A stretch of 18,049 nucleotides of DNA from a virus. Numbering within the stretch: the first letter of the stretch is position 1; each line of letters starts with the position of its first letter. A program made the position numbers and the translations under genes. The notes under the pieces were generated by a model. The model saw nothing but the letters and a program-made list of their open reading frames with translations. It ran no database searches and was not told where the DNA came from. The DNA is taken from UHGV virus genome UHGV-0118719; one strand, 5' to 3'. Shown one piece after another: positions 1 through 13,470 of this stretch.

Positions 1-31
1 AAACGGCGAAGCATCACCAGATTTTTGATGG

Positions 32-331
32 TTATAAAAAAGGTTGGTTTGGGAGGGATGGGGCAAACCTATAGCGCATCGCAAGATAACTCCTCAGAAC
101 CCTCCCCATGTTACGCAGGATCCAGTACCGGTTCTCGCTTTCGTTTGTCGTCTTATCGGCGAAGTCCGGCTGGTATCGCTCGATCCATGTATTTGCATCC
201 GCCTTACTGAAATGCCAGTTCCTCTCCTGCAGTTCAGCGATGAACTTGTCTGTATGCAGGCAGAGATAGCCCTTCGGGTTTTGCTGTATGGCCGCAATAA
301 AAGCAGCACGAATATCCGGTTGACGAGGCAT
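32..331 (-). CDS. small hypothetical protein (about 99 aa from the ATG at 329-331; the track ORF begins at a GTG at 349), divergent from the dinI-like gene
   Basis: Six-frame ORF 32..349; in-frame ATG at 329-331; shares the LexA-box intergenic region with the dinI-like gene; weak RBS; no family recognised by eye. Confidence 0.45.
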   Translation of the reverse strand: MPRQPDIRAAFIAAIQQNPKGYLCLHTDKFIAELQERNWHFSKADANTWIERYQPDFADKTTNESENRYWILRNMGRVLRSYLAMRYRFAPSLPNQPFL

Positions 332-352
332 GAACGCACTCTCACTCACTCA

Positions 353-381
353 TTGACTGTATACATATACAGTAGTATTTT
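353..381 (+). promoter_or_regulatory. putative sigma70 promoter of the dinI-like gene (-35 TTGACT 353-358, 17-bp spacer, -10 TATTTT 376-381)
   Basis: Hexamers read directly; the -10 is weak; the LexA box sits inside the spacer. Confidence 0.4.
355..374. promoter_or_regulatory. LexA (SOS) box, CTGT-N8-ACAG palindrome
   Basis: Sequence gaCTGTatacatatACAGta at 355-374 against the E. coli consensus TACTGTATATATATACAGTA; lies between the two divergent genes and overlaps the putative -35/spacer of the dinI-like promoter. Confidence 0.75.
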
Positions 382-407
382 TATAAAAACAGATCAAGCA
401 CAGGCAA
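380..407 (-). promoter_or_regulatory. putative sigma70 promoter for the divergent minus-strand ORF (minus-strand -35 TTGCCT at 402-407, 16-bp spacer, -10 TATAAA at 380-385)
   Basis: Hexamers read on the reverse complement; the predicted start site falls in or next to the LexA box. Confidence 0.35.
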
Positions 408-431
408 TTTTTCACTTATAAGAGGATCGGT

Positions 432-698
432 ATGTTTGTTGAACTGGTTTATGACAAGCGAAATGTTGAGGGGCTCCAGGGGGCCAGAGAGATCATCCTG
501 GCTGAGCTAACCAAGCGTGTGCACCAGATTTTTCCTGATGCAGAAGTGAAGGTGAAGCCGATGCAGGCAAACGGCTTGAATAGCGATGCCAGCAAAAGCG
601 ATCGGGAAAAGCTGAACCGCATGCTGGAGGAAATGTTTGAAGAGTCAGATATGTGGCTGGTTTCTGAGTTCCCGACCGTTCGACAGGTTGGCCTTTGA
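432..698 (+). CDS. dinI: DinI-like protein (DNA-damage-inducible protein I family; prophage-type, MFVELVYDKRN... N-terminus)
   Basis: 88-aa ORF; AGAGGA RBS 5 nt before the ATG; sequence pattern matches remembered DinI and prophage DinI-like proteins (FPDAEVKVKP..., EEMFEESDMWLVSE); LexA box upstream. Confidence 0.85.
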   Translation: MFVELVYDKRNVEGLQGAREIILAELTKRVHQIFPDAEVKVKPMQANGLNSDASKSDREKLNRMLEEMFEESDMWLVSEFPTVRQVGL

Positions 699-754
699 AT
701 CTTGTTCGGATAATATTCCCGGCGTTTTCTCGGGCATGAACACTGAGCAATCAA

Positions 755-793
755 CCGCCGCTCATTCTTGCATACGATGGGCGGCGGATTTTT
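755..793. terminator. rho-independent terminator after the dinI-like gene; also sits at the 3' end of the convergent tail-fibre gene
   Basis: 11-bp stem ccgccgctcat (755-765) / atgggcggcgg (777-787) with one G-U pair and an 11-nt loop, followed by ATTTTTC. Confidence 0.55.
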
Positions 794-1995
794 CAGCTTC
801 CAGGCCGCAACGCATCGAGCTTTTTCTTTAAATCTTCAACTTGCTGCATTAAAGCCAGAATCGCTTCATGATGTAGCGCTGCCGCAACGCCGTAAGTATC
901 TGGAGAGAGCACTCCTTCCACCACAGTTCCATCTGGGAGTTTACGATCACCCCCCTCAGTTACTGCTTGCGGGAAAACGTTCTTAACATCCTGCGCGATA
1001 AATCCTATCCCCCATTGTCCGGTATCTTTTCTCGTCCACGAGCAACCTTTTAGCATTTCCATCTTTTTGAGCGGGTCCTCAATTCTGGTCACCCCATCCT
1101 TCAGGCGGCCATCTGAATTCGGAACCCAAGCGCCAGGTGCTACAGCGTTGCCATTTAATTTAATAAAGCTCCAGTTGGTTCCTGAACTTGCGTTTGCTAC
1201 CTGAATATTCCCTGTTAAAGAACCATCCGCAGCCATTTGGGAGTAAAGGGCGCACACAGCAGCATCCGTTCCGTTGGCCCACCGTAGCAGGGAACGAATT
1301 AAACCGCCGACTGATCCTTCAGTTACCGTTGGTTGCGTATAACTCGTAATACTTCCATTAACTGCACCGCCAGTTTTCTGATCGATAGTATTTAATCTTG
1401 TATCGTTACCTGCAGCCACCGTTCCCGCTGTTGCGCCAATGTCTCTCGTGGCACTGTTTCCCAAACCGAGGCTTGTGCGAGCACCTGATGCGGTTGTTGA
1501 ACCGGTACCGCCCTGTCCAACAGATAGCGCTGTCGTGAGTCCGCTGAGCGAAGTAATATCGCTGTTTGCACCTTTTGCCGCCTTGCCTGAAAGTGATGTA
1601 GTAATGCTATTCCAGGCTGGGCCCGTCCATGTCGTTCCATCCGGCAGTGTTACTGTTACATTGCCGGTTCCAGAAAAAATGCTTTGCCAGTTCTGTTTGT
1701 CGTAATTCAGTCCTCGCAGCGCTTCAGCACTTTGCGCCACCAGCGCGGCAGTTACCATGTTCAGAGCCACACGGGGAACCGCTGACCAGGCAGCGCCGGC
1801 CTGAGTAGGGCCGGTAAAGTTGCTGACCAGCGTAAGCTGCGCATTACTCTCTACAGATTTTACGGGCAATGTATACGACACGCCGCCAACAGTAGAGACA
1901 ATAAAATCACCTGCAGCGAGTTCAGTTGCGAATGAGGTTCCGGAACCGCCAACAATAGCGGACCCGTTTGTCAGGGTGATGGTGCCTGCCGACAT
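793..1995 (-). CDS. tail fibre protein with C-terminal S74-type intramolecular chaperone (autoproteolytic) domain
   Basis: 400-aa ORF; AGGAG RBS (2002-2006, reverse complement) 6 nt before the ATG; N-terminus MSAGTITLTNGSAIVGGSGTSF typical of tail-fibre anchors; Gly/Ser/Thr-rich middle; the last ~107 aa begin SDGRLKDG..., resembling the SDxRLK start of endosialidase / T5 pb1 chaperone domains. Confidence 0.8.
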   Translation of the reverse strand: MSAGTITLTNGSAIVGGSGTSFATELAAGDFIVSTVGGVSYTLPVKSVESNAQLTLVSNFTGPTQAGAAWSAVPRVALNMVTAALVAQSAEALRGLNYDKQNWQSIFSGTGNVTVTLPDGTTWTGPAWNSITTSLSGKAAKGANSDITSLSGLTTALSVGQGGTGSTTASGARTSLGLGNSATRDIGATAGTVAAGNDTRLNTIDQKTGGAVNGSITSYTQPTVTEGSVGGLIRSLLRWANGTDAAVCALYSQMAADGSLTGNIQVANASSGTNWSFIKLNGNAVAPGAWVPNSDGRLKDGVTRIEDPLKKMEMLKGCSWTRKDTGQWGIGFIAQDVKNVFPQAVTEGGDRKLPDGTVVEGVLSPDTYGVAAALHHEAILALMQQVEDLKKKLDALRPGS

Positions 1996-2016
1996 AAAAT
2001 ACTCCTGAATTCAGAT

Positions 2017-2052
2017 AATAAAAAACCCGCCTCGGCGGGTTCTTGTTTTTTT
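2017..2052. terminator. bidirectional rho-independent terminator between the Cor-like lipoprotein gene and the tail-fibre gene
   Basis: A-run, 6-bp stem acccgc (2025-2030) / gcgggt (2035-2040) with loop ctcg, then TCTTGTTTTTTT; gives a T-tract on both strands. Confidence 0.65.
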
Positions 2053-2291
2053 CATTTTGTACAGGTCGAGCCGGTAAAGTTGTTTTTACTTACCCAGCGC
2101 CAGTTGAAAGGATATCCAGCTTTGTATTCAATCTGATTTGCTACTCGCCTCACACCATAGACCTGAACAGTCTGTTCTTGTCCACCGACAACTATTACGG
2201 CCTCACATACTGGATTCTGCTTCTCAAGGAGATTGGATGAGCAAGCAGAAAGAAGACTGCAAAAAAGAAACATGACTGATATTTTTTTCAT
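2052..2291 (-). CDS. small outer-membrane-type lipoprotein, Cor-like (candidate superinfection-exclusion lipoprotein)
   Basis: 79-aa ORF with ATG start; signal peptide MKKISVMFLFCSLLSAC with lipobox LSAC; AT-rich; occupies the position next to the tail-fibre gene where N15/phi80/HK022/T1-type phages carry cor. Family assignment is unverified. Confidence 0.65.
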   Translation of the reverse strand: MKKISVMFLFCSLLSACSSNLLEKQNPVCEAVIVVGGQEQTVQVYGVRRVANQIEYKAGYPFNWRWVSKNNFTGSTCTK

Positions 2292-2370
2292 TATTTTGCC
2301 CTGAGGTAATTAGTTTTATAAAAATTAACCTGACGGGGAGATTAATGAAAATAGATTAAACAGATCAATA

Positions 2371-2397
2371 TCAAAAAATCGATCGTTTTAAACGATC
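2371..2397 (-). terminator. GATC-containing dyad (gatcgtttTaaacgatc) followed by a T6 tract on the minus strand; weak terminator or operator
   Basis: 17-bp near-perfect palindrome at 2381-2397 directly after the stop of the 224-aa ORF, with an A-run at 2373-2378 on the plus strand. Confidence 0.35.
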
Positions 2398-2399
2398 AT

Positions 2400-3074
2400 T
2401 TAATCAAATGCAGCCGTATTGATAGCGGTCAAAGAAATTCCTGTGTTGGTTCCTCCACCTGGTGAGCCAGTTCCGGTAGATGTACCACCTGCGTTTATTC
2501 TCGTACTGCCACCATTAAACCTACAAGATGAATAGGCATTTATAGTGTAGATAGTTGGGGGCTGAGTGGAGTTATTAACGATAATCGTCTGACCAAGCTG
2601 AGCCGGAGCGACAGCCCACGACCCGGACAGTGTCTGGTCAATGTTAATCCCACCGCTTGCACCTGGACTCCCCACAGTTTGTAGATCAGAAAGCACCCTT
2701 GATTCGTTCGTCAGAACAAGCTTACCGGAGGCATCCCAGATAGCAAATCCCCACGCAGGAAGTGTTTGAGGAAATATTGAAAATACATATGCTGTAAGCG
2801 TAAAGCTCTGGTTATAGGGATTAACGCCACTAATATAGACATTTCCTCCGATGCGATATGACATGACTGGTGTCGGTTGTGCAGTATCAGTCGTTTTTAT
2901 GAAAACCATTACCGGATAATCGGCAGGCACCGAAAGATATTGTGCCACCTGTTGGGAGCTGCCATTAGCTGAGGAATTAAATGAGTATTTCCCATAGAGG
3001 CAGAAAGGCGTTGATTGCGGAGTGACGAAGGGATTCCCATTATCCATTAAAATCATTGCGCCAAAGTCGGACAC
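2400..3074 (-). CDS. hypothetical protein (224 aa), second of two coupled post-J ORFs; Gly/Ser/Thr-rich C-terminus
   Basis: ORF begins at a GTG (3072-3074) that overlaps the upstream TAG by 1 nt (TAGTG); GGAGAAGG RBS inside the end of the upstream ORF; shares a WDASG motif with the upstream ORF. Confidence 0.6.
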   Translation of the reverse strand: MSDFGAMILMDNGNPFVTPQSTPFCLYGKYSFNSSANGSSQQVAQYLSVPADYPVMVFIKTTDTAQPTPVMSYRIGGNVYISGVNPYNQSFTLTAYVFSIFPQTLPAWGFAIWDASGKLVLTNESRVLSDLQTVGSPGASGGINIDQTLSGSWAVAPAQLGQTIIVNNSTQPPTIYTINAYSSCRFNGGSTRINAGGTSTGTGSPGGGTNTGISLTAINTAAFD

Positions 3075-3376
3075 TATGCCTTCTCCATAAAAACGATCAG
3101 CTCACATTTCGAGGCCGGATAATTACCAAGCCCAGTGTCAGATGCGGACGTCACAGTTATTGAGTTACCTGATGCAACTATTCTTCGCCCTACGCTGTTA
3201 CCTCCTTCATCAAGAGAAACAACAAAACCAACTTTAAAACCTGTGGGCACAGTGAAACTCCAAGAACCTGAGTTCTGACCTGCTGCAAGTGGAATGCGGC
3301 CTACTACCGATACTGGTTTAATGCCATAGTTATTAGGCCTTCCGCTGGCATCCCATGTTTGTATTCCCCATGACAT
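3074..3376 (-). CDS. hypothetical protein (100 aa), first of two coupled post-J ORFs
   Basis: ATG at 3374-3376 overlaps the J stop by 1 nt (TGATG); AGGAG RBS 8 nt upstream, inside the end of J; WDASG motif. Confidence 0.6.
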   Translation of the reverse strand: MSWGIQTWDASGRPNNYGIKPVSVVGRIPLAAGQNSGSWSFTVPTGFKVGFVVSLDEGGNSVGRRIVASGNSITVTSASDTGLGNYPASKCELIVFMEKA

Positions 3377-6300
3377 CAGAATACTCCTGTCAGTTTTCCA
3401 ATCTGTACGCGCAGGACGCCGTTAGCATCCCTTATGCTGTCAGTAACATTCGTTGTCTTTCTTGCGCCCTGCCCGTCACTGCCATAGTTTTCCCAAGTGC
3501 CACCTTTATCCAGTTTCCATCCAGATTGCCCGGCAACGTAATTGTTGGACTGGATAAAGTTACCGATTTTGGCATTGGTGATCGTGCCATCCTGAATAAA
3601 CGCTGAGCTGATAAACACCTGACCGTTTACCACCGCGAACGGCGAATACTGGGTATCACCACTGCCGCTCATCAGCACGAACTGGTTAGCGTTGAAACCA
3701 ACCCGCGTGACTACCGGCTTCCCTGCCTCTGCAAGCACTGCAATAGACATCCCGGCGTTATAAATCACCCCGTTTATTCTCACGCCCGTTTTGAGGGTGT
3801 GGATTGCCGAAGCACCGGAGGCATCTACGACAGCTGTAAGCTTGTCTTCCAGGGAAGCGGTAACATCCTCAATCTGCGCCTGCACCTGCGTCGAAAGTTC
3901 GGCCATTGCATTATCAACTTCAGCAATCGTCGTTTTAACCACCAGAATATCGGCACGCACTTCTCCGTATTGTGCCCACTGGTGCTCAACAGTTCCATGG
4001 TTCGCCAGGGCGTTCTGCAGTATTCCCTCAATGTTGGTATCGATGTCACCAGTCAGGCGTTCTCCGTCTGCAGAGGTTAGGAAATCATCTGCGATATCGC
4101 CCAAATAATCATCGGCGTTATCGTTAGACATCCCCCTGATCCAGTCGGTATACCCGGACTCGTTACCCGTTCTGTCGACCAGCTGCGCGCGGTACCAGAA
4201 TTCCTGCCCTGCTTTAAGGCCGAGCTGGGTGTATTCCGCAGATGGATAAGGCACGTCTGAGAGCAAGAGTGGATCTGAAAAGTCACTGTTGGCAGTGTAC
4301 TGAATTTCCGTTTTTAGCGTATCGCCGGTGTTTGCCGGGAAACCCCAGTTAAGACGAATCCCCCAGTTAATGCCCGTGGCTGTGAATCCTACTGGCTTAG
4401 GCGGATTACCTACTTTGCCGGTCAGTGTCTTCTCTTCTGAATATCCCCATCCTGAGGAAATTTCAGCGGCATTAATTGCGCGCACGCGCACCAGGTAGCG
4501 CCCGGCATAAATCCCCGGGACGTCAAATGACGTGGTGGAGCTGCGAGGCATGTTCACCCAGTTTCCGTCGTTGCGGCGCCACTGCCCCTCATAGGCGATA
4601 GCGTTCTGCGCCTGGTCCCAGCTCACGCGCATCGTTTCGACGCTGATATTCTGCTGAACAACCGAAAACGAACTGATCGTGATGTTGGCTGGCGGGGACT
4701 GATTACCGGGCGGAATTACACTTATTGGCCGCTGGTCGATGATGGCGCCGGTATCGATACGGGCATACTTATCCGGATCGTGAAAAGCACCAGTAATCGA
4801 AAACGTGCCGTCGTTATTATCAGCGACGCTGATAACACGATATTGCTGTGCATAAAGCTCGTCGGATTCGACAATCCATACCGATTCGACTGCCGGTGTT
4901 TCGCTGTATGCCGTGGTCACGGTGACAGCCCGACCGTTTACGCTCTGTATCGTCCTGCTCTGCGATGCGCCAGACGGCAGGTTAACCATAAGACGGCTTC
5001 CGGCAACGGCTGCGGAATCACGATCAAGCGTGATAACGCGACCATTAACCGCGCTGATACGCCCTCCCATCACCTTTCCGGATAACAGATCATCGGCAAC
5101 CGCGATAATATAACCAGGCTGCGGAATGTTTCCGTCCAGCCCGACATCAAACGAAACAACGCGATCCTTGTTATTGGTGAGAATACCCCAGCGCCCCTTT
5201 CGGTTCGCCTCTGACTGCCTGGTGCAGCCGATGGCTGTCATTTCCAGCTGATTGAAGCCGTACCGCGCCACCAGCGCCTGCTCAAATACCGGCTCCATCG
5301 CGTCGGCATAAGCGTTACCCGGGTCTGACCATGAAACCAGCGCTGTGGTGTAGCGGCTTTTCGTGGTGCTGCTCGAATAGGTGAAGCGACCGCCAACAAC
5401 GTTAGCGCGCGTATAGCTGTAATCAACATCGCGCGGCATGTCAGCCAGGGCCACAATCTGATCCCCGCCCCAGTAGGTCATGCCACGGAAGATAGCGGCA
5501 AAATCACGCAGGACTGTGTAGGCGTCGTTCCGGTCCTGAATGTACACGTTGCAGGTATAGCGTGGTTCTGTACCGTTGCCCCCTTTGCCGTCTGGTACCA
5601 TCTGATCACAATACTGAGCAACCTGATAAAGCGTCCATTTATCAATATTCGCAGCGGTCAAACGGTGCCCAAGGCCGAACCGGTCAGAAACAACCAGGTC
5701 GTAAAAAATCCACGCAGGGTTATCCGTCCATGCCCACTTAAACGCACCGGTCCATGTACCGCTATAAGTGCGGGTTTCAGGGTCGTAGGTATCTGGAACG
5801 CGGATAACGCGGCCGCGCGGTTCGCATGAAATTTGAGGAATAGAGCCGTTGAACTGGCTTGAGTCGAATTCGACGTAGAGCAGCGCGGTGTTCGGGTAGC
5901 GCAGTTTGGCGTCAATCACCTCGGTGAAGCTCTGCAGCATCATCGTGTCGCCGATCTTCGCGCTGTTGGCGTCAGAGGTAATCTTACGCAGACGTATTGT
6001 CCATGTGCTGCCAGCCTGCGGTAAATCGATACGGTGGCTGCGCTCATAACCAGACGTCGTTTTGCCGGTCACGCTGGTATTGAGTACCGTCTGCCATGTG
6101 CCGCCGTCAGTCTGCAGGTCAATCGCATAATTGACCGAGTAACCCACCAGATCGCCGTCGTCTTCCTGTTTGAAAAGCGAGGGCCATTTAAGACGCAGGC
6201 GAACTGCTGAAAGCTGCGTATTGGTAAACGTGCGCGTCCAGGCTGTGGCACTTGATACCTCAGTTCCTACGCTGATCTCGTTTTCGGTACCGGGAATACC

Positions 6301-6561
6301 CTGAATATATTTTTGCGCCTGCGTTCCCGCGCGAAACTCCCACGTTACCCCGCTGAAGTTTTGGGAGCCGTCAGCATTCTCCAGCGCTGTTCCGTCCAGG
6401 TAGATATCTTTGCCGGTGAGCTGTCCAGCAAACTCCCCTTCCCCAAGCGCAACGAGGATTTTTGCCTTCGCTACAGATTGCAGATCATCAGGCTGTTCGG
6501 TAGGGGTTCGGGAACTTGAGCTGCCGCCCTTGCGGCCTTTTAACACTTTATCTGTAGCCAT
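3376..6561 (-). CDS. J: tail tip / central tail fibre protein J (host specificity protein)
   Basis: 1061-aa ORF in the lambda J position after I; conserved lambda-J-like blocks in the central region (e.g. YPNTAL, WTLYQVAQYCDQMVPDGKGG..TEPRYTCNVY); N- and C-terminal regions diverge from lambda. Confidence 0.9.
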   Translation of the reverse strand: MATDKVLKGRKGGSSSSRTPTEQPDDLQSVAKAKILVALGEGEFAGQLTGKDIYLDGTALENADGSQNFSGVTWEFRAGTQAQKYIQGIPGTENEISVGTEVSSATAWTRTFTNTQLSAVRLRLKWPSLFKQEDDGDLVGYSVNYAIDLQTDGGTWQTVLNTSVTGKTTSGYERSHRIDLPQAGSTWTIRLRKITSDANSAKIGDTMMLQSFTEVIDAKLRYPNTALLYVEFDSSQFNGSIPQISCEPRGRVIRVPDTYDPETRTYSGTWTGAFKWAWTDNPAWIFYDLVVSDRFGLGHRLTAANIDKWTLYQVAQYCDQMVPDGKGGNGTEPRYTCNVYIQDRNDAYTVLRDFAAIFRGMTYWGGDQIVALADMPRDVDYSYTRANVVGGRFTYSSSTTKSRYTTALVSWSDPGNAYADAMEPVFEQALVARYGFNQLEMTAIGCTRQSEANRKGRWGILTNNKDRVVSFDVGLDGNIPQPGYIIAVADDLLSGKVMGGRISAVNGRVITLDRDSAAVAGSRLMVNLPSGASQSRTIQSVNGRAVTVTTAYSETPAVESVWIVESDELYAQQYRVISVADNNDGTFSITGAFHDPDKYARIDTGAIIDQRPISVIPPGNQSPPANITISSFSVVQQNISVETMRVSWDQAQNAIAYEGQWRRNDGNWVNMPRSSTTSFDVPGIYAGRYLVRVRAINAAEISSGWGYSEEKTLTGKVGNPPKPVGFTATGINWGIRLNWGFPANTGDTLKTEIQYTANSDFSDPLLLSDVPYPSAEYTQLGLKAGQEFWYRAQLVDRTGNESGYTDWIRGMSNDNADDYLGDIADDFLTSADGERLTGDIDTNIEGILQNALANHGTVEHQWAQYGEVRADILVVKTTIAEVDNAMAELSTQVQAQIEDVTASLEDKLTAVVDASGASAIHTLKTGVRINGVIYNAGMSIAVLAEAGKPVVTRVGFNANQFVLMSGSGDTQYSPFAVVNGQVFISSAFIQDGTITNAKIGNFIQSNNYVAGQSGWKLDKGGTWENYGSDGQGARKTTNVTDSIRDANGVLRVQIGKLTGVF

Positions 6562-6571
6562 ATTGCGCCCA

Positions 6572-6595
6572 TAAAAAAGCCACCCAAAGGTGGCT
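6572..6595 (-). terminator. rho-independent terminator on the minus strand, ending about 10 nt upstream of the J start codon
   Basis: Plus-strand A6 then 7-bp stem agccacc (6578-6584) / ggtggct (6589-6595) with loop caaa; on the minus strand this is a hairpin followed by TTTTTTAT. Confidence 0.55.
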
Positions 6596-6726
6596 ACTGT
6601 CTGAATATCAGGATGTTACAAATCTAAATACCTGGTTATGTTGTGGATTCAGCCCGCCAGCGGTGGGACGCTGGTGAACTCATAACAGGTGGAATGGCTG
6701 ATTACCTCTGGAAAAAGGAGAAGTAA

Positions 6727-6987
6727 ATGGGTTCGATGTTAGAACTGGAAAAAGAAGTGGCAGAGCTTAAACAAAAGCTGCTTACGCATGAAATTGCAAC
6801 TGGCCTGATTCTATCGGACATTGTGAAATTACTGGACATTGCCCGGCCAGGCGCACTCGATGCTCTGACTAAAAACTATCAGGCAGGGCAAGCAAAAATC
6901 CCAGAATCAGCTGCACGTAATGATCCGCACACAATTGATGCGTTCACGCGCATCCTTAAAGTTTTAGAGGTGGCATCAAAGAAATAA
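6727..6987 (+). CDS. hypothetical small protein (86 aa) on the opposite strand to the tail operon; coiled-coil-like N-terminus
   Basis: AGGAG RBS (6716-6720) 6 nt before the ATG at 6727; AT-rich compared with flanking tail genes; 3' end overlaps the convergent minus-strand ORF by 32 bp. Confidence 0.5.
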   Translation: MGSMLELEKEVAELKQKLLTHEIATGLILSDIVKLLDIARPGALDALTKNYQAGQAKIPESAARNDPHTIDAFTRILKVLEVASKK

Positions 6988-7273
6988 TTAAATCGAGCTT
7001 TTCATTGAATATTTCTTCATGAGTTTTAGCGGCCTCATTCTGGGCCGCTGTTACCGTTCCACCGAAAACCCCTGCATCACCCTGCGAAATCTTTCCCTCC
7101 TTTACTCGCAAACTCCAGCCATTACCGGTGATGGTCGAATGAATAGCGCCACCTGGCCGTAGTGCGTTCTGAATGGCGGAATTGACGATTGCCGGGTTAT
7201 GCAGCTCTGCTATCTCCACCTGCAGGCTCGCGATGGTTGCCTCAAGCATGCTCATGCGCTCTTCTAAAGTCAT
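6956..7273 (-). CDS. hypothetical small protein (105 aa from the ATG at 7271-7273) between I and J
   Basis: AGGAG RBS 7 nt upstream of the ATG at 7273; the longer track ORF (to 7375) would overlap I and lacks an RBS; coiled-coil-like N-terminus. Confidence 0.5.
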   Translation of the reverse strand: MTLEERMSMLEATIASLQVEIAELHNPAIVNSAIQNALRPGGAIHSTITGNGWSLRVKEGKISQGDAGVFGGTVTAAQNEAAKTHEEIFNEKLDLIISLMPPLKL

Positions 7274-10953: not shown

Positions 10954-13470
10954 TTACCTGCGATTGGTCGCATTCCAGATAAGCCCACCGGGCTGGATTG
11001 CCCTGGCGATACCATCGTTGACAGATTTGTTAATCACCTGCTGATACGCCTTACCCAGCCTGTCTCCGTCGTTTTGCTGCTGTGCGTTACCGGAAGCATT
11101 CTCGACCGTCACCGGGGCATATACACTGACACCGAAAGGTGCTGCAGCCGGGCCTGTACCACCGCCCCCGACATACCCACCCGTGGCATACCCTTTCATC
11201 ATCCGGTAAAGATTGCCGACGCCGATCCGGCTGGTAGCCTCTTTGGTGAAAACAAATTCACCACGGTGAACGACACCTGCAGGTTCATATTTCCCGCCTG
11301 AACCGGTATAACCGCCACCTGCAAATCCCAGCGCGGTTGTCGCTGAATCCACCAGGCCTACCATCGCCTGTTTCAGCAGGATCTGTGTCAGCATGGAGAG
11401 CGTGGAGCGGGTGAAGTCAGCCCAGTCAGCCTTTCCGCGCGTCAGCATGTCAGCCATATTTTGCCCGATGCCATCAAACGCACTGGTGGCAGCCGACTTC
11501 ATCTGGCCATAAGCATCTGAAGCAGAATCAACATAATCTGCCCATGCGGATTTGGCTCCGGACTGCCAGTCGTCCCGCAGCTTATCCTGCTCGGCGTAAT
11601 ACGCCTGCAGCGCCTGCAGCTCATTCTGATAACCAGCATCGTTCTCCGAACCACCACCATTTTTCCAGCCCTGAAGAAGCTGGGCCTCTTCATTGCGACG
11701 TTGTGCTGCACGACTGCTCATACCAGCACTTTCCGCAAGGGCTCGGGTTTTCTCGCCGATCTGCGTGACGTATTTTTGGGACGTATCCTGCAGGCGATTA
11801 AGCCGCTCCTGCGCCACTATCTGATCGCCGAGCTTCGCATTCAGCTCCGCACGGGAAAGCACCTCACTTTTACTGGCCAGCAGGGATTTTTCCTCAGCAG
11901 AAAGCGTTCGGGTCTTCGCGGCCTCTTCCAGAACCGTAAAGCGGGACTGCTGACGCCACAGCTCCTGACGCTGCTGGCTGATGGTGTCATTGATGCTCTT
12001 ATGCTCCTGCAGGGTGCGCAGCTGTGTCTGTAGCTCCAGCGTCTGGGCACTGGCCGTATCGGTGGCACGGGCACCTGCGGGGGTTCTGATTGCCGGGGTC
12101 TTCTTCGGCTTTTTAAGGGTGTCTTCGTACTCTTTTTTCGCGGCAGCCAGGTTGATGTTGTAGTCAGCCTGGAGGATCCGCCCCTCTTTCAGCGCCTTGT
12201 TGAGCTCGCTCTGCCTGGCCGTGTATTTCTCCAGTGCCGTCTGCGTTTTGGCATAGTTTGCCTGTGCCTGCGCAGCATACTTCTGGCGATCCGATTCCGC
12301 AGCCGCTTCGCGCGATGCATTCTCTTCGTTCGCCCTGGCAATTCCCGCCTGCTGCTGCGCCATATCCAGCGCAAGCCTGGCCGTTTCGCGGTCATTCCAG
12401 AATCGGGCGCGAGCCTCATCATTGACATATCGGTCACCTTTACGCAGGTTCCAGATTTCATCAGCTTTTTTGAACGCGGCTTCGGCTTTTGCCACCATCT
12501 CCTGCGCGGTGTCAGGTCGGCCAATATCGAGGGCTGCATCCCACATCGACTTGAAGGCGCGCTTCAGGGAGTCCGCTGAAGACTCTATCGTCCCCATATT
12601 GTCGCGGATGGCTTTGGTCTGATCGTTGAATCCGGCTGTAGCCGCCTCGTTAGCCGCCTGCAGTGCGCCAGCCTCATCACCGGCACGCTGCAGCTGCGCC
12701 ACATGGGCAATCTGTTCTGCGGTAACGTTATGGAACTGCTGGGCCATCGCGATCAGGCCCGATGTCGGGTCAGTTGCGAGCTTGCCGTAGGCTGCAGCGA
12801 CTTTCTCCACCGGCACGCCGGAGGCATCAGTAAACCGCGCCACCGCCTGGCTCATTTCATCAAAGCGCGAGCCAGTACGCACACCTGCATTGATAAGCTC
12901 GGTCAGGGCTTCACTGGTCTGGTTGAACGTTAGCCCCGCTGCCTGTCCGTTCCGCGCCAGTGCCAGCATGCGGTCAGCTGTCAGTCCGGCTGTGTTCCCC
13001 GACAGTACCAGCGTTTTGTTGAAATCAGACAGAGTGGAAGAGCCCTGGTACCAGGCATAGAACAACGCGCCCGTTGCAACGGACAATGCACCAATGCCGA
13101 CCATCAACGGGGAAATCGTCCCCAGCAACGCCCGGAATGTCGGAATGATCCCGCCAAAGGAGTCCTTAACCTGACCGCCCTGCTGAAGCAGAATCAGCCA
13201 GGGGTTCTGCCCACCCGCCAGCTGCGTGGCCACGTCAGTAAACTGCGCCGGGAGCATACGCATCGCTGCGTTATACTGACCCACTGAAATACCGGCCTTA
13301 CGCGCGGCGTTCTCCTGGCGGCTGAAGGACTGCTGGATACGTAACGCTTCATCGTTTGCCGTATTGCCGGTCTGTTTTAATTCTTTTTTGACGTAGCTGA
13401 GCTGCTCGTTGAATTTTGTCGAGTTAACGTCAAGGTTAACGACCAGATCACCGACTGCCGTCTGAGCCAT
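10954..13470 (-). CDS. H: tail tape measure protein H
   Basis: 838-aa ORF; long blocks match remembered lambda gpH (GISVGQYNAAMRMLPAQFTDVATQLAGGQNPWLILLQQGGQVKDSFGG, YEPAGVVHRGEFVFTKEATSRIGVGNLYRMMKGYATGG); start overlaps the T stop by 23 nt. Confidence 0.92.
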   Translation of the reverse strand: MAQTAVGDLVVNLDVNSTKFNEQLSYVKKELKQTGNTANDEALRIQQSFSRQENAARKAGISVGQYNAAMRMLPAQFTDVATQLAGGQNPWLILLQQGGQVKDSFGGIIPTFRALLGTISPLMVGIGALSVATGALFYAWYQGSSTLSDFNKTLVLSGNTAGLTADRMLALARNGQAAGLTFNQTSEALTELINAGVRTGSRFDEMSQAVARFTDASGVPVEKVAAAYGKLATDPTSGLIAMAQQFHNVTAEQIAHVAQLQRAGDEAGALQAANEAATAGFNDQTKAIRDNMGTIESSADSLKRAFKSMWDAALDIGRPDTAQEMVAKAEAAFKKADEIWNLRKGDRYVNDEARARFWNDRETARLALDMAQQQAGIARANEENASREAAAESDRQKYAAQAQANYAKTQTALEKYTARQSELNKALKEGRILQADYNINLAAAKKEYEDTLKKPKKTPAIRTPAGARATDTASAQTLELQTQLRTLQEHKSINDTISQQRQELWRQQSRFTVLEEAAKTRTLSAEEKSLLASKSEVLSRAELNAKLGDQIVAQERLNRLQDTSQKYVTQIGEKTRALAESAGMSSRAAQRRNEEAQLLQGWKNGGGSENDAGYQNELQALQAYYAEQDKLRDDWQSGAKSAWADYVDSASDAYGQMKSAATSAFDGIGQNMADMLTRGKADWADFTRSTLSMLTQILLKQAMVGLVDSATTALGFAGGGYTGSGGKYEPAGVVHRGEFVFTKEATSRIGVGNLYRMMKGYATGGYVGGGGTGPAAAPFGVSVYAPVTVENASGNAQQQNDGDRLGKAYQQVINKSVNDGIARAIQPGGLIWNATNRR

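Follow-up and report, generated by a model that had tools for sequence, protein, structure and literature searches.

A single LexA box predicted to serve a dinI-like gene and a divergent gene of the ORF79 family at the end of a lambdoid prophage

In Escherichia coli, one 20-bp LexA box serves the divergent promoters of uvrA and ssb and overlaps core elements of both. LexA-controlled accessory genes at the ends of prophages are also already known, among them humD in P1, the dinI operons of the Gifsy prophages and the UmuD/DinI genes found in phages of N15/phiKO2 type. The Gifsy antirepressors are small, LexA-controlled proteins encoded outside the immunity region beside a dinI homologue; their operon, which lies about 1.3 kb past the replication genes, carries dinI, the antirepressor gene and irsA in that order on the same strand (PMC3121763). 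The small damage-inducible protein DdrR, reportedly found only in Acinetobacter and encoded divergently from umuDAb, is paired with and acts with the UmuD-family protein UmuDAb (PMC11332147). Here we analyse one end of an 18,049-nucleotide (nt) stretch of the virus genome UHGV-0118719 (the window, meaning the whole stretch), where a LexA box lies between a dinI-like gene and a divergent, minus-strand open reading frame (ORF). The initial annotation had proposed that this one box controls both genes and that the small ORF may be an SOS-triggered antirepressor of the Gifsy type. Phylogenetic footprinting supports the first proposal, while the second is not supported, given the lack of similarity to Gifsy GftA and a different gene layout. 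Positions 32-793 of the window are, on balance, best read as a shared-operator SOS module, with the small ORF probably belonging to the sphere of the SOS response and translesion synthesis and not to that of repressor inactivation.

The LexA box and two predicted divergent promoters

The elements of the module, in window coordinates, are the following.

32-94, minus strand: 20-codon C-terminal extension of the small ORF and its stop codon, in the window/HK225 lineage only
95-331, minus strand: conserved 79-codon core of the small ORF, PHROG 3893 family, predicted winged helix
353-381, plus strand: predicted dinI promoter, -35 TTGACT (353-358), 17-nt spacer, -10 TATTTT (376-381), from a consensus scan
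355-374: LexA (SOS) box GACTGTATACATATACAGTA, putative shared operator of the two divergent promoters, from consensus match and conservation
369-397, minus strand: predicted small-ORF promoter, -35 TTGATC (397-392), 17-nt spacer, -10 TACTGT (374-369), from conservation
432-698, plus strand: dinI-like gene, 88 amino acids, DinI family
755-793, plus strand: intrinsic-terminator-like hairpin with a 12-bp GC-rich stem (755-766/776-787), followed by AUUUUU

The box GACTGTATACATATACAGTA agrees with the E. coli consensus TACTGTATATATATACAGTA at 18 of 20 positions, and its CTGT-N8-ACAG arms are perfect. This arm pattern occurs twice in the window against 0.17 occurrences expected; the other one, at 12990 within a tail gene, is GC-rich in its spacer and was put down to chance. 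To follow the box across relatives, we fetched 33 genomic loci that carry relatives of the small ORF and examined the DNA 5' of each ATG, scoring 32 of them for the box. An equivalent was found in 31 of these 32 loci, with 7-8 of the 8 LexA arm bases kept at a distance of 14-24 nt 5' of the small-ORF ATG, even though the proteins of the loci that share this arrangement fall to 57% identity. Such a recurrence of box and ORF together lies far beyond chance, and the near-consensus SOS box that the initial annotation had placed in the spacer of the dinI-like promoter is borne out both by its match to the consensus and by its retention.

Across these loci the box follows the small ORF. Only eight of the 33 loci have dinI on the divergent side; the box is thus retained with the small ORF regardless of dinI, and it belongs primarily to the small ORF. 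The end of the box varies with its neighbour: ACAGTC occurs only in dinI-type loci, with ACAGTA or ACAGTT in the remaining ones. At the dinI-type loci the reverse complement of this end reads TTGACTGT and supplies the -35 hexamer of the dinI promoter; G355, the flank mismatch of the window box, is part of that -35 and was seen only in dinI-bearing loci. Since the ACAGTC end covaries with dinI, the mismatch would represent the cost of building a second promoter. Both hexamers of the dinI promoter are conserved among the dinI-type relatives, with the LexA box sitting in the spacer between them.

On the strand of the small ORF, a TTGAnn hexamer (mostly TTGATC) stands 17-18 nt 5' of the hexamer with which the box opens, usually TACTGT, in 30 of 31 loci. 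The spacer between the two diverges among relatives while the hexamers themselves are kept, including at loci that have no dinI neighbour. This footprint has the form of a sigma-70 promoter that would use the left arm of the operator as its -10 element and would start transcription within the box, in agreement with the earlier proposal that the box covers the start region of a divergent promoter. The operator thereby overlaps predicted core elements of both promoters, namely the spacer of dinI and, through its left arm, the -10 of the small ORF. We infer LexA binding and damage inducibility at 355-374 from these sequence patterns, and a single LexA site very probably switches on both genes after DNA damage.

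The plus-strand gene of the pair is preceded by a good Shine-Dalgarno element and encodes a product that matches Pfam DinI PF06183 (8.4e-23; 80.9 bits against a cutoff of 24.2) as well as PHROG 189, RecA filament binding protein DinI; its counterpart in HK225 is annotated DinI. Against the NCBIfam equivalog for E. coli DinI the window protein scores below the cutoff (40.8 versus 111), and it is therefore to be regarded as a phage DinI-like paralogue and not as the chromosomal orthologue. Further downstream, the RNA of 699-800 folds at -36.1 kcal/mol (z = -4.3), a value that none of 200 shuffles equalled. The hairpin at 755-793, which has a 9-nt loop and was missed by a simple terminator scan, appears to terminate the dinI transcript, and it abuts the stop codon of a convergent tail-fibre gene. 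Because a strong hairpin and this convergent gene lie directly 3' of it, the dinI-like gene would be monocistronic.

The ORF79 family and its UmuD'-like partner

The divergent ORF of about 99 codons noted in the initial annotation is real in extent, running from an ATG at 331 to a stop codon at 32 and encoding 99 amino acids, with a Shine-Dalgarno-like GAGAG at 343-339, 5' of the ATG. An alternative GTG start at 349 (105 amino acids) was rejected, as the homologues all begin MPR at the ATG and the Shine-Dalgarno element lies just upstream of it. The first 79 residues of the product align with positions 1-79 of the 79-position profile phrog_3893 (function unknown; 3.2e-42), and we refer to the family as ORF79. 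Its 142 close homologues, nearly all exactly 79 amino acids long, come from Enterobacter, Escherichia, Salmonella, Citrobacter, Klebsiella, Leclercia, Erwinia and other genera. An exhaustive profile search returned 156 clusters at 50% identity, and the family is present in 47 phage records and in many Enterobacterales prophages, with the conserved motifs DANxWIxRYQPxFxDKT and NMGR. Four long homologues with the appearance of fusions (P0135, P0228, P0265 and P0186) were rejected as domain fusions, since they look like frameshifted read-through into the UmuD'-like gene described below. Two further proteins of about 1,000 amino acids (P0167 and P0188) consist of a single fragment, similar to ORF79 residues ~50-74, repeated 11 times in tandem, and are probably translated assembly or repeat artefacts.

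Searches of the ORF against Pfam, NCBIfam and PDB sequences gave only sub-threshold noise (WVELL, NOT2_3_5_C, DUF7669, HpaB and Vip3), which was rejected, and no sequence homology was found between ORF79 and the N-terminal domain of LexA. Foldseek comparison of the 99-residue model with the PDB returned nothing significant (E of at least 0.14). For fold assignment the 79-residue core was remodelled with a deeper alignment, which yielded a winged-helix fold at a predicted local distance difference test (pLDDT) value of 90, with the topology H1-(b)-H2-H3-b-b and with structural matches to solved winged-helix domains; the 20-residue extension was modelled at low confidence (pLDDT 55-64). The sole match in a BFVD fold search was the same protein, HK225 gp28. 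The PefI/PapI, Sso10a and MarR/PadR/Fur DNA-binding domains differ from ORF79 in sequence, with 3-17% identity and no sequence-profile match, and the modelled resemblance to small stand-alone winged-helix proteins would hold at the level of fold class only, assigning no function.

Among relatives, the ORF79 stop codon overlaps, within the sequence TGATG, the start of an ORF of 104-129 codons that begins MGFPSPAxDYxE, and the great majority of the genomic loci studied have ORF79 followed by a UmuD'-like gene coupled in this way. The 129-residue partner in HK140 aligns over its full length with E. coli UmuD' (E = 6e-19); its residue 2 aligns with G25 of UmuD, which is residue 1 of UmuD' and the N-terminus produced by RecA-stimulated cleavage, and its GDSM catalytic-serine motif is not kept. 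A 123-residue form of the partner and P1 HumD both match Pfam Peptidase_S24, and the forms of about 105 residues retain the N-terminal arm only. Hardly any variation is seen in this arm, MGFPSPAxDYxE, including in proteins whose remainder has diverged past Pfam detection. Existing annotations describe the partners as 'UmuD-like', similar to HumD and to phiKO2 gp23.

The canonical order of the module is tail fibre, (dinI, divergent), LexA box, ORF79 followed by the UmuD-like gene, and attP/int, and it is found in mEp390, Flotzy, HK140, Erwinia phage Midgardsormr38 and Cronobacter phage phiES15. The two coupled genes recombine freely. Copies of ORF79 that are 97% identical carry partners that are only 27-29% identical, and the pairwise identities of ORF79 and partner are weakly correlated (r = 0.24 over 276 pairs among relatives L002-L036). 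The ORF79/partner junction, equivalent to about 94-97 of the window, is a general recombination hotspot.

We also observed that several relatives, L016, L018, L024 and L025 among them, carry the box TACTGTATATAAAAACAGTA 5' of ORF79, a sequence which we take to be identical to the E. coli umuDC operator. If this identity is right, it would hint at a common ancestry of the phage control region and umuD' gene with umuDC.

The window/HK225 lineage

The lineage to which the window belongs has departed from the canonical module precisely at this junction. When the 3' ends are aligned, homology to L002-L004 and mEp390 ends exactly at the family stop codon, where in the window and HK225 GTTTTCTGA has become GTTCTGA; this 2-nt deletion puts the stop out of frame and adds 20 unrelated codons. 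The extension appears to have arisen at the junction at which the UmuD'-like gene was replaced. That TGATG-coupled gene is absent from the window/HK225 lineage, which has a Resolvase-family invertase instead, and the gene downstream of the ORF in HK225 encodes a 182-residue serine DNA invertase (Resolvase plus HTH_7). The exact 99-residue protein occurs on at least 17 public contigs from different samples, and in all four places shown the invertase begins 59 nt after the ORF and is followed by host yciI, yciA, yciB and yciC. Lying between the tail-fibre gene and the attachment site, the locus would be the extreme end of a prophage that has inserted at yciI, the site also given in the HK225 annotation.

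The core of the window protein is 98.7% identical to HK225 gp28, although the DNA over 1-667 is only 92% identical. The two ORF copies differ at 2 of 237 core positions, and with so few differences selection cannot be shown. Taken with the loss of the partner, the sequence suggests that the window ORF is an orphaned and possibly decaying copy of the gene that heads ORF79-umuD' operons. Because no terminator separates the ORF from the invertase, its SOS promoter may read into the invertase gene; the sole hairpin between the two (CTCCTGTT-TTCA-TAACAGGAG) pairs the AGGAG ribosome-binding site of the invertase.

Within the 20-codon extension, at 32-58 on the minus strand, lies the hix/gix-like sequence CCCTCCCAAACCAACCTTTTTTATAA. 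We considered an invertible segment bounded by this site and holding dinI and the ORF, and rejected it, as no inverted partner site was found in window 1-7000 or in HK225; the hix-like site looks solitary or vestigial.

Several side observations concern the surroundings of the module. Similarity to phi80, mEp237, Fraca and others starts at 428-431, from the dinI ORF onward and without its promoter and box, and similarity to Flotzy, LLS, HK140 and others starts at 98, the original stop of the ORF; breaks of this kind at gene boundaries (428-431 and ~98) represent classic mosaic module exchange. The convergent tail-fibre gene (793-1995, minus strand; 400 amino acids) has a C-terminal Peptidase_S74 intramolecular chaperone domain and, unlike in HK225, is without a separate assembly gene. 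Beyond it, 2052-2291 on the minus strand encodes a 79-residue lipoprotein-like protein beginning MKKISVMFLFCSLLSACSS, at the position held by the Cor superinfection-exclusion gene in HK225, mEp390 and HK140.

Readings of the locus and comparison with known systems

The arrangement described above is best explained if 32-793 is the SOS module that a lambdoid (HK97/N15/phi80-like) prophage carries near its attachment site, with one LexA operator common to two overlapping sigma-70 promoters that stand back to back. A LexA dimer at 355-374 would block RNA polymerase at both promoters in undamaged lysogens, and after DNA damage, RecA*-stimulated self-cleavage of LexA would allow both genes to be expressed, as expected from SOS biology. 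The DinI-type product would modulate RecA filaments. ORF79, for its part, would normally head a LexA-controlled operon of two genes, the second of which supplies a natively 'pre-cleaved' UmuD'-like protein, as P1 HumD is. The ORF79 product is most likely, if speculatively, a regulator or accessory connected with UmuD'-type proteins. The window/HK225 lineage would then have exchanged the UmuD'-like gene for a serine DNA invertase, lengthening the ORF from 79 to 99 codons and possibly placing the invertase within reach of the SOS promoter of the ORF.

Several points weigh against this account. The minus-strand promoter was not reported by a generic promoter scan, and its proposed -10, TACTGT, agrees with TATAAT at positions 1, 2 and 6 only, with four of six matches in the -35. 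Because ORF79 and its partners recombine freely and P1 HumD occurs without an ORF79, a tight, obligate coupling of the two is not demonstrated. Lastly, because its partner is absent and its C-terminus altered, the window ORF may be non-functional.

This last point leads to the alternative that the window ORF is a functionless remnant, a piece of young recombination debris beside a box that matters only for dinI. The lost partner, the stop codon removed by the 2-nt deletion and the 20 unrelated residues all favour it, as do a Shine-Dalgarno element weaker than in relatives (GAGAG versus GAGGG/GAGGT), truncated copies of 38 codons (L023) and 55 codons (L033) elsewhere, and a divergence from HK225 too small to show selection. 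A remnant would nevertheless have to account for an intact 79-codon core whose protein has stayed almost identical to gp28 across more divergent DNA, for the integrity of promoter, box and ATG, and for the identical 99-residue protein on contigs from different samples. We consider this alternative unlikely.

Two more specific roles can be imagined for the family. Also unlikely is the suggestion that ORF79 is an unrecognised SOS effector acting with or on S24-fold proteins (UmuD', UmuD, LexA or CI). It might then contribute the DNA-binding or adaptor half to a two-piece, non-cleavable LexA-like factor, or be a DdrR-like co-factor by which host Pol V or LexA activity is redirected while the prophage is being induced; the window-lineage protein would in that case act alone and could put the DNA invertase under SOS control. 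Very unlikely, in our estimation, is the narrower proposal that ORF79 is a DNA-binding regulator which forms a two-piece LexA/CI-like factor with its UmuD' partner and which, on its own, may control the invertase. LexA does consist of a winged-helix domain joined to an S24 domain, and the predicted fold of ORF79, a partner that begins exactly at the post-cleavage position and the translational coupling of the two genes would all fit such a factor, as would the assistance that DdrR gives to the UmuD-like repressor UmuDAb in Acinetobacter (PMC11332147). Against it stand the lack of sequence similarity to the LexA N-terminal domain, a near-neutral charge with a putative recognition helix that, as read from the sequence, is not basic, the free shuffling of partners, which argues against co-adaptation, and the fact that no candidate operator was identified.

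The proposal of an SOS-induced antirepressor that inactivates the repressor of its own or a co-resident prophage, as GfoA and GftA do, has some points in its favour. As at the dinI-gfoA/gftA/gfhA-irsA operons of Gifsy-1/-2/-3, a prophage dinI has a LexA box at its promoter, and as in Gifsy, where the proteins are shorter than 100 amino acids, a small LexA-controlled ORF lies outside the immunity region beside a dinI homologue (PMC3121763). Antirepressors are diverse in sequence, so absence of homology is not decisive, and the persistence of the partnerless copy on at least 17 contigs suggests a possible independent role.

Other features weigh against it. The antirepressor locus of Gifsy-2 (STM1019-STM1020) runs dinI, then the 73-residue, GUG-initiated GftA, then irsA, all on the same strand and in a nin-like region, whereas the window ORF is divergent from a monocistronic, terminated dinI and lies by the tail fibre and attachment site. 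Alignment of the ORF79 family (A1) with GftA (L038:6465-6686) by hhalign gave a probability of 0.1% (E = 0.43). The conserved partner of the family is UmuD'-like and not repressor-related. Repressors are non-cleavable in Gifsy and of S24 type in three relatives that carry the module: gp46 of HK225, with its phi80-like immunity, matches Peptidase_S24 (1e-15), the mEp390 repressor is annotated 'LexA family' and that of HK140 is an HK620-like cI of S24 type. The three, which represent three different immunities, are presumably self-cleaving. As a rule, RecA* acts directly on repressors of the S24/LexA type, for which no antirepressor is required; one acting in these phages would be unnecessary and would have to recognise unrelated repressors. 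We keep a small residual probability for an antirepressor because the window is without its own immunity region and antirepressors are diverse, and otherwise set this reading aside as highly improbable.

A second dinI in Gifsy-2, at its right end (L037 15341-15529), was considered as the antirepressor locus and rejected, as it is truncated and followed by gtgE. This 63-codon truncated dinI (region L037 15341-15566) is 87% identical to the window DinI and has its own LexA box, AACTGTTTGTATATACAGTA, directly 5' of the effector gene gtgE, which may thus lie downstream of an SOS-controlled promoter.

The reading of 32-793 as a shared-operator SOS module carries a caution for annotation, as LexA control and a dinI neighbour do not by themselves make a small ORF an antirepressor of the Gifsy type. 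It also defines a conserved, unnamed family with an unusually clean SOS footprint and a confident winged-helix model, almost always coupled to a UmuD' mimic. If ORF79 modulates Pol V, RecA or LexA, the family would matter for the way in which prophages adjust host mutagenesis and SOS dynamics under DNA-damaging antibiotics.

Set beside the known systems, the window locus is an ordinary SOS-regulated prophage moron, and since LexA-controlled loci of this kind were already known, its regulatory design is a further example and not a new principle. The uvrA-ssb pair consists of chromosomal repair genes, whereas the window holds prophage morons whose box supplies one -10 and part of the other promoter's -35. 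DdrR and UmuDAb offer a conceptual model, speculative and by analogy, for ORF79 and its UmuD'-like partner, with the difference that UmuDAb is a full-length, DNA-binding, cleavable repressor, unlike the pre-truncated partner. ORF79 was rejected as a homologue of P1 Lxr, a 190-residue protein without a Pfam match that differs in length, is unrelated and is encoded divergently from humD, and a tblastn search of 50,697 phage records with the ORF core as query gave no P1 match at E <= 0.01. Like the module at 32-793, the lxr-humD locus of P1 is an accessory locus of a temperate phage with one annotated LexA site between divergent genes, and it differs in having the natively truncated UmuD'-like HumD directly after the box, where the window is without a UmuD'-like gene. 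P1 lxr/humD is the nearest phage precedent for a single LexA site between divergent genes.

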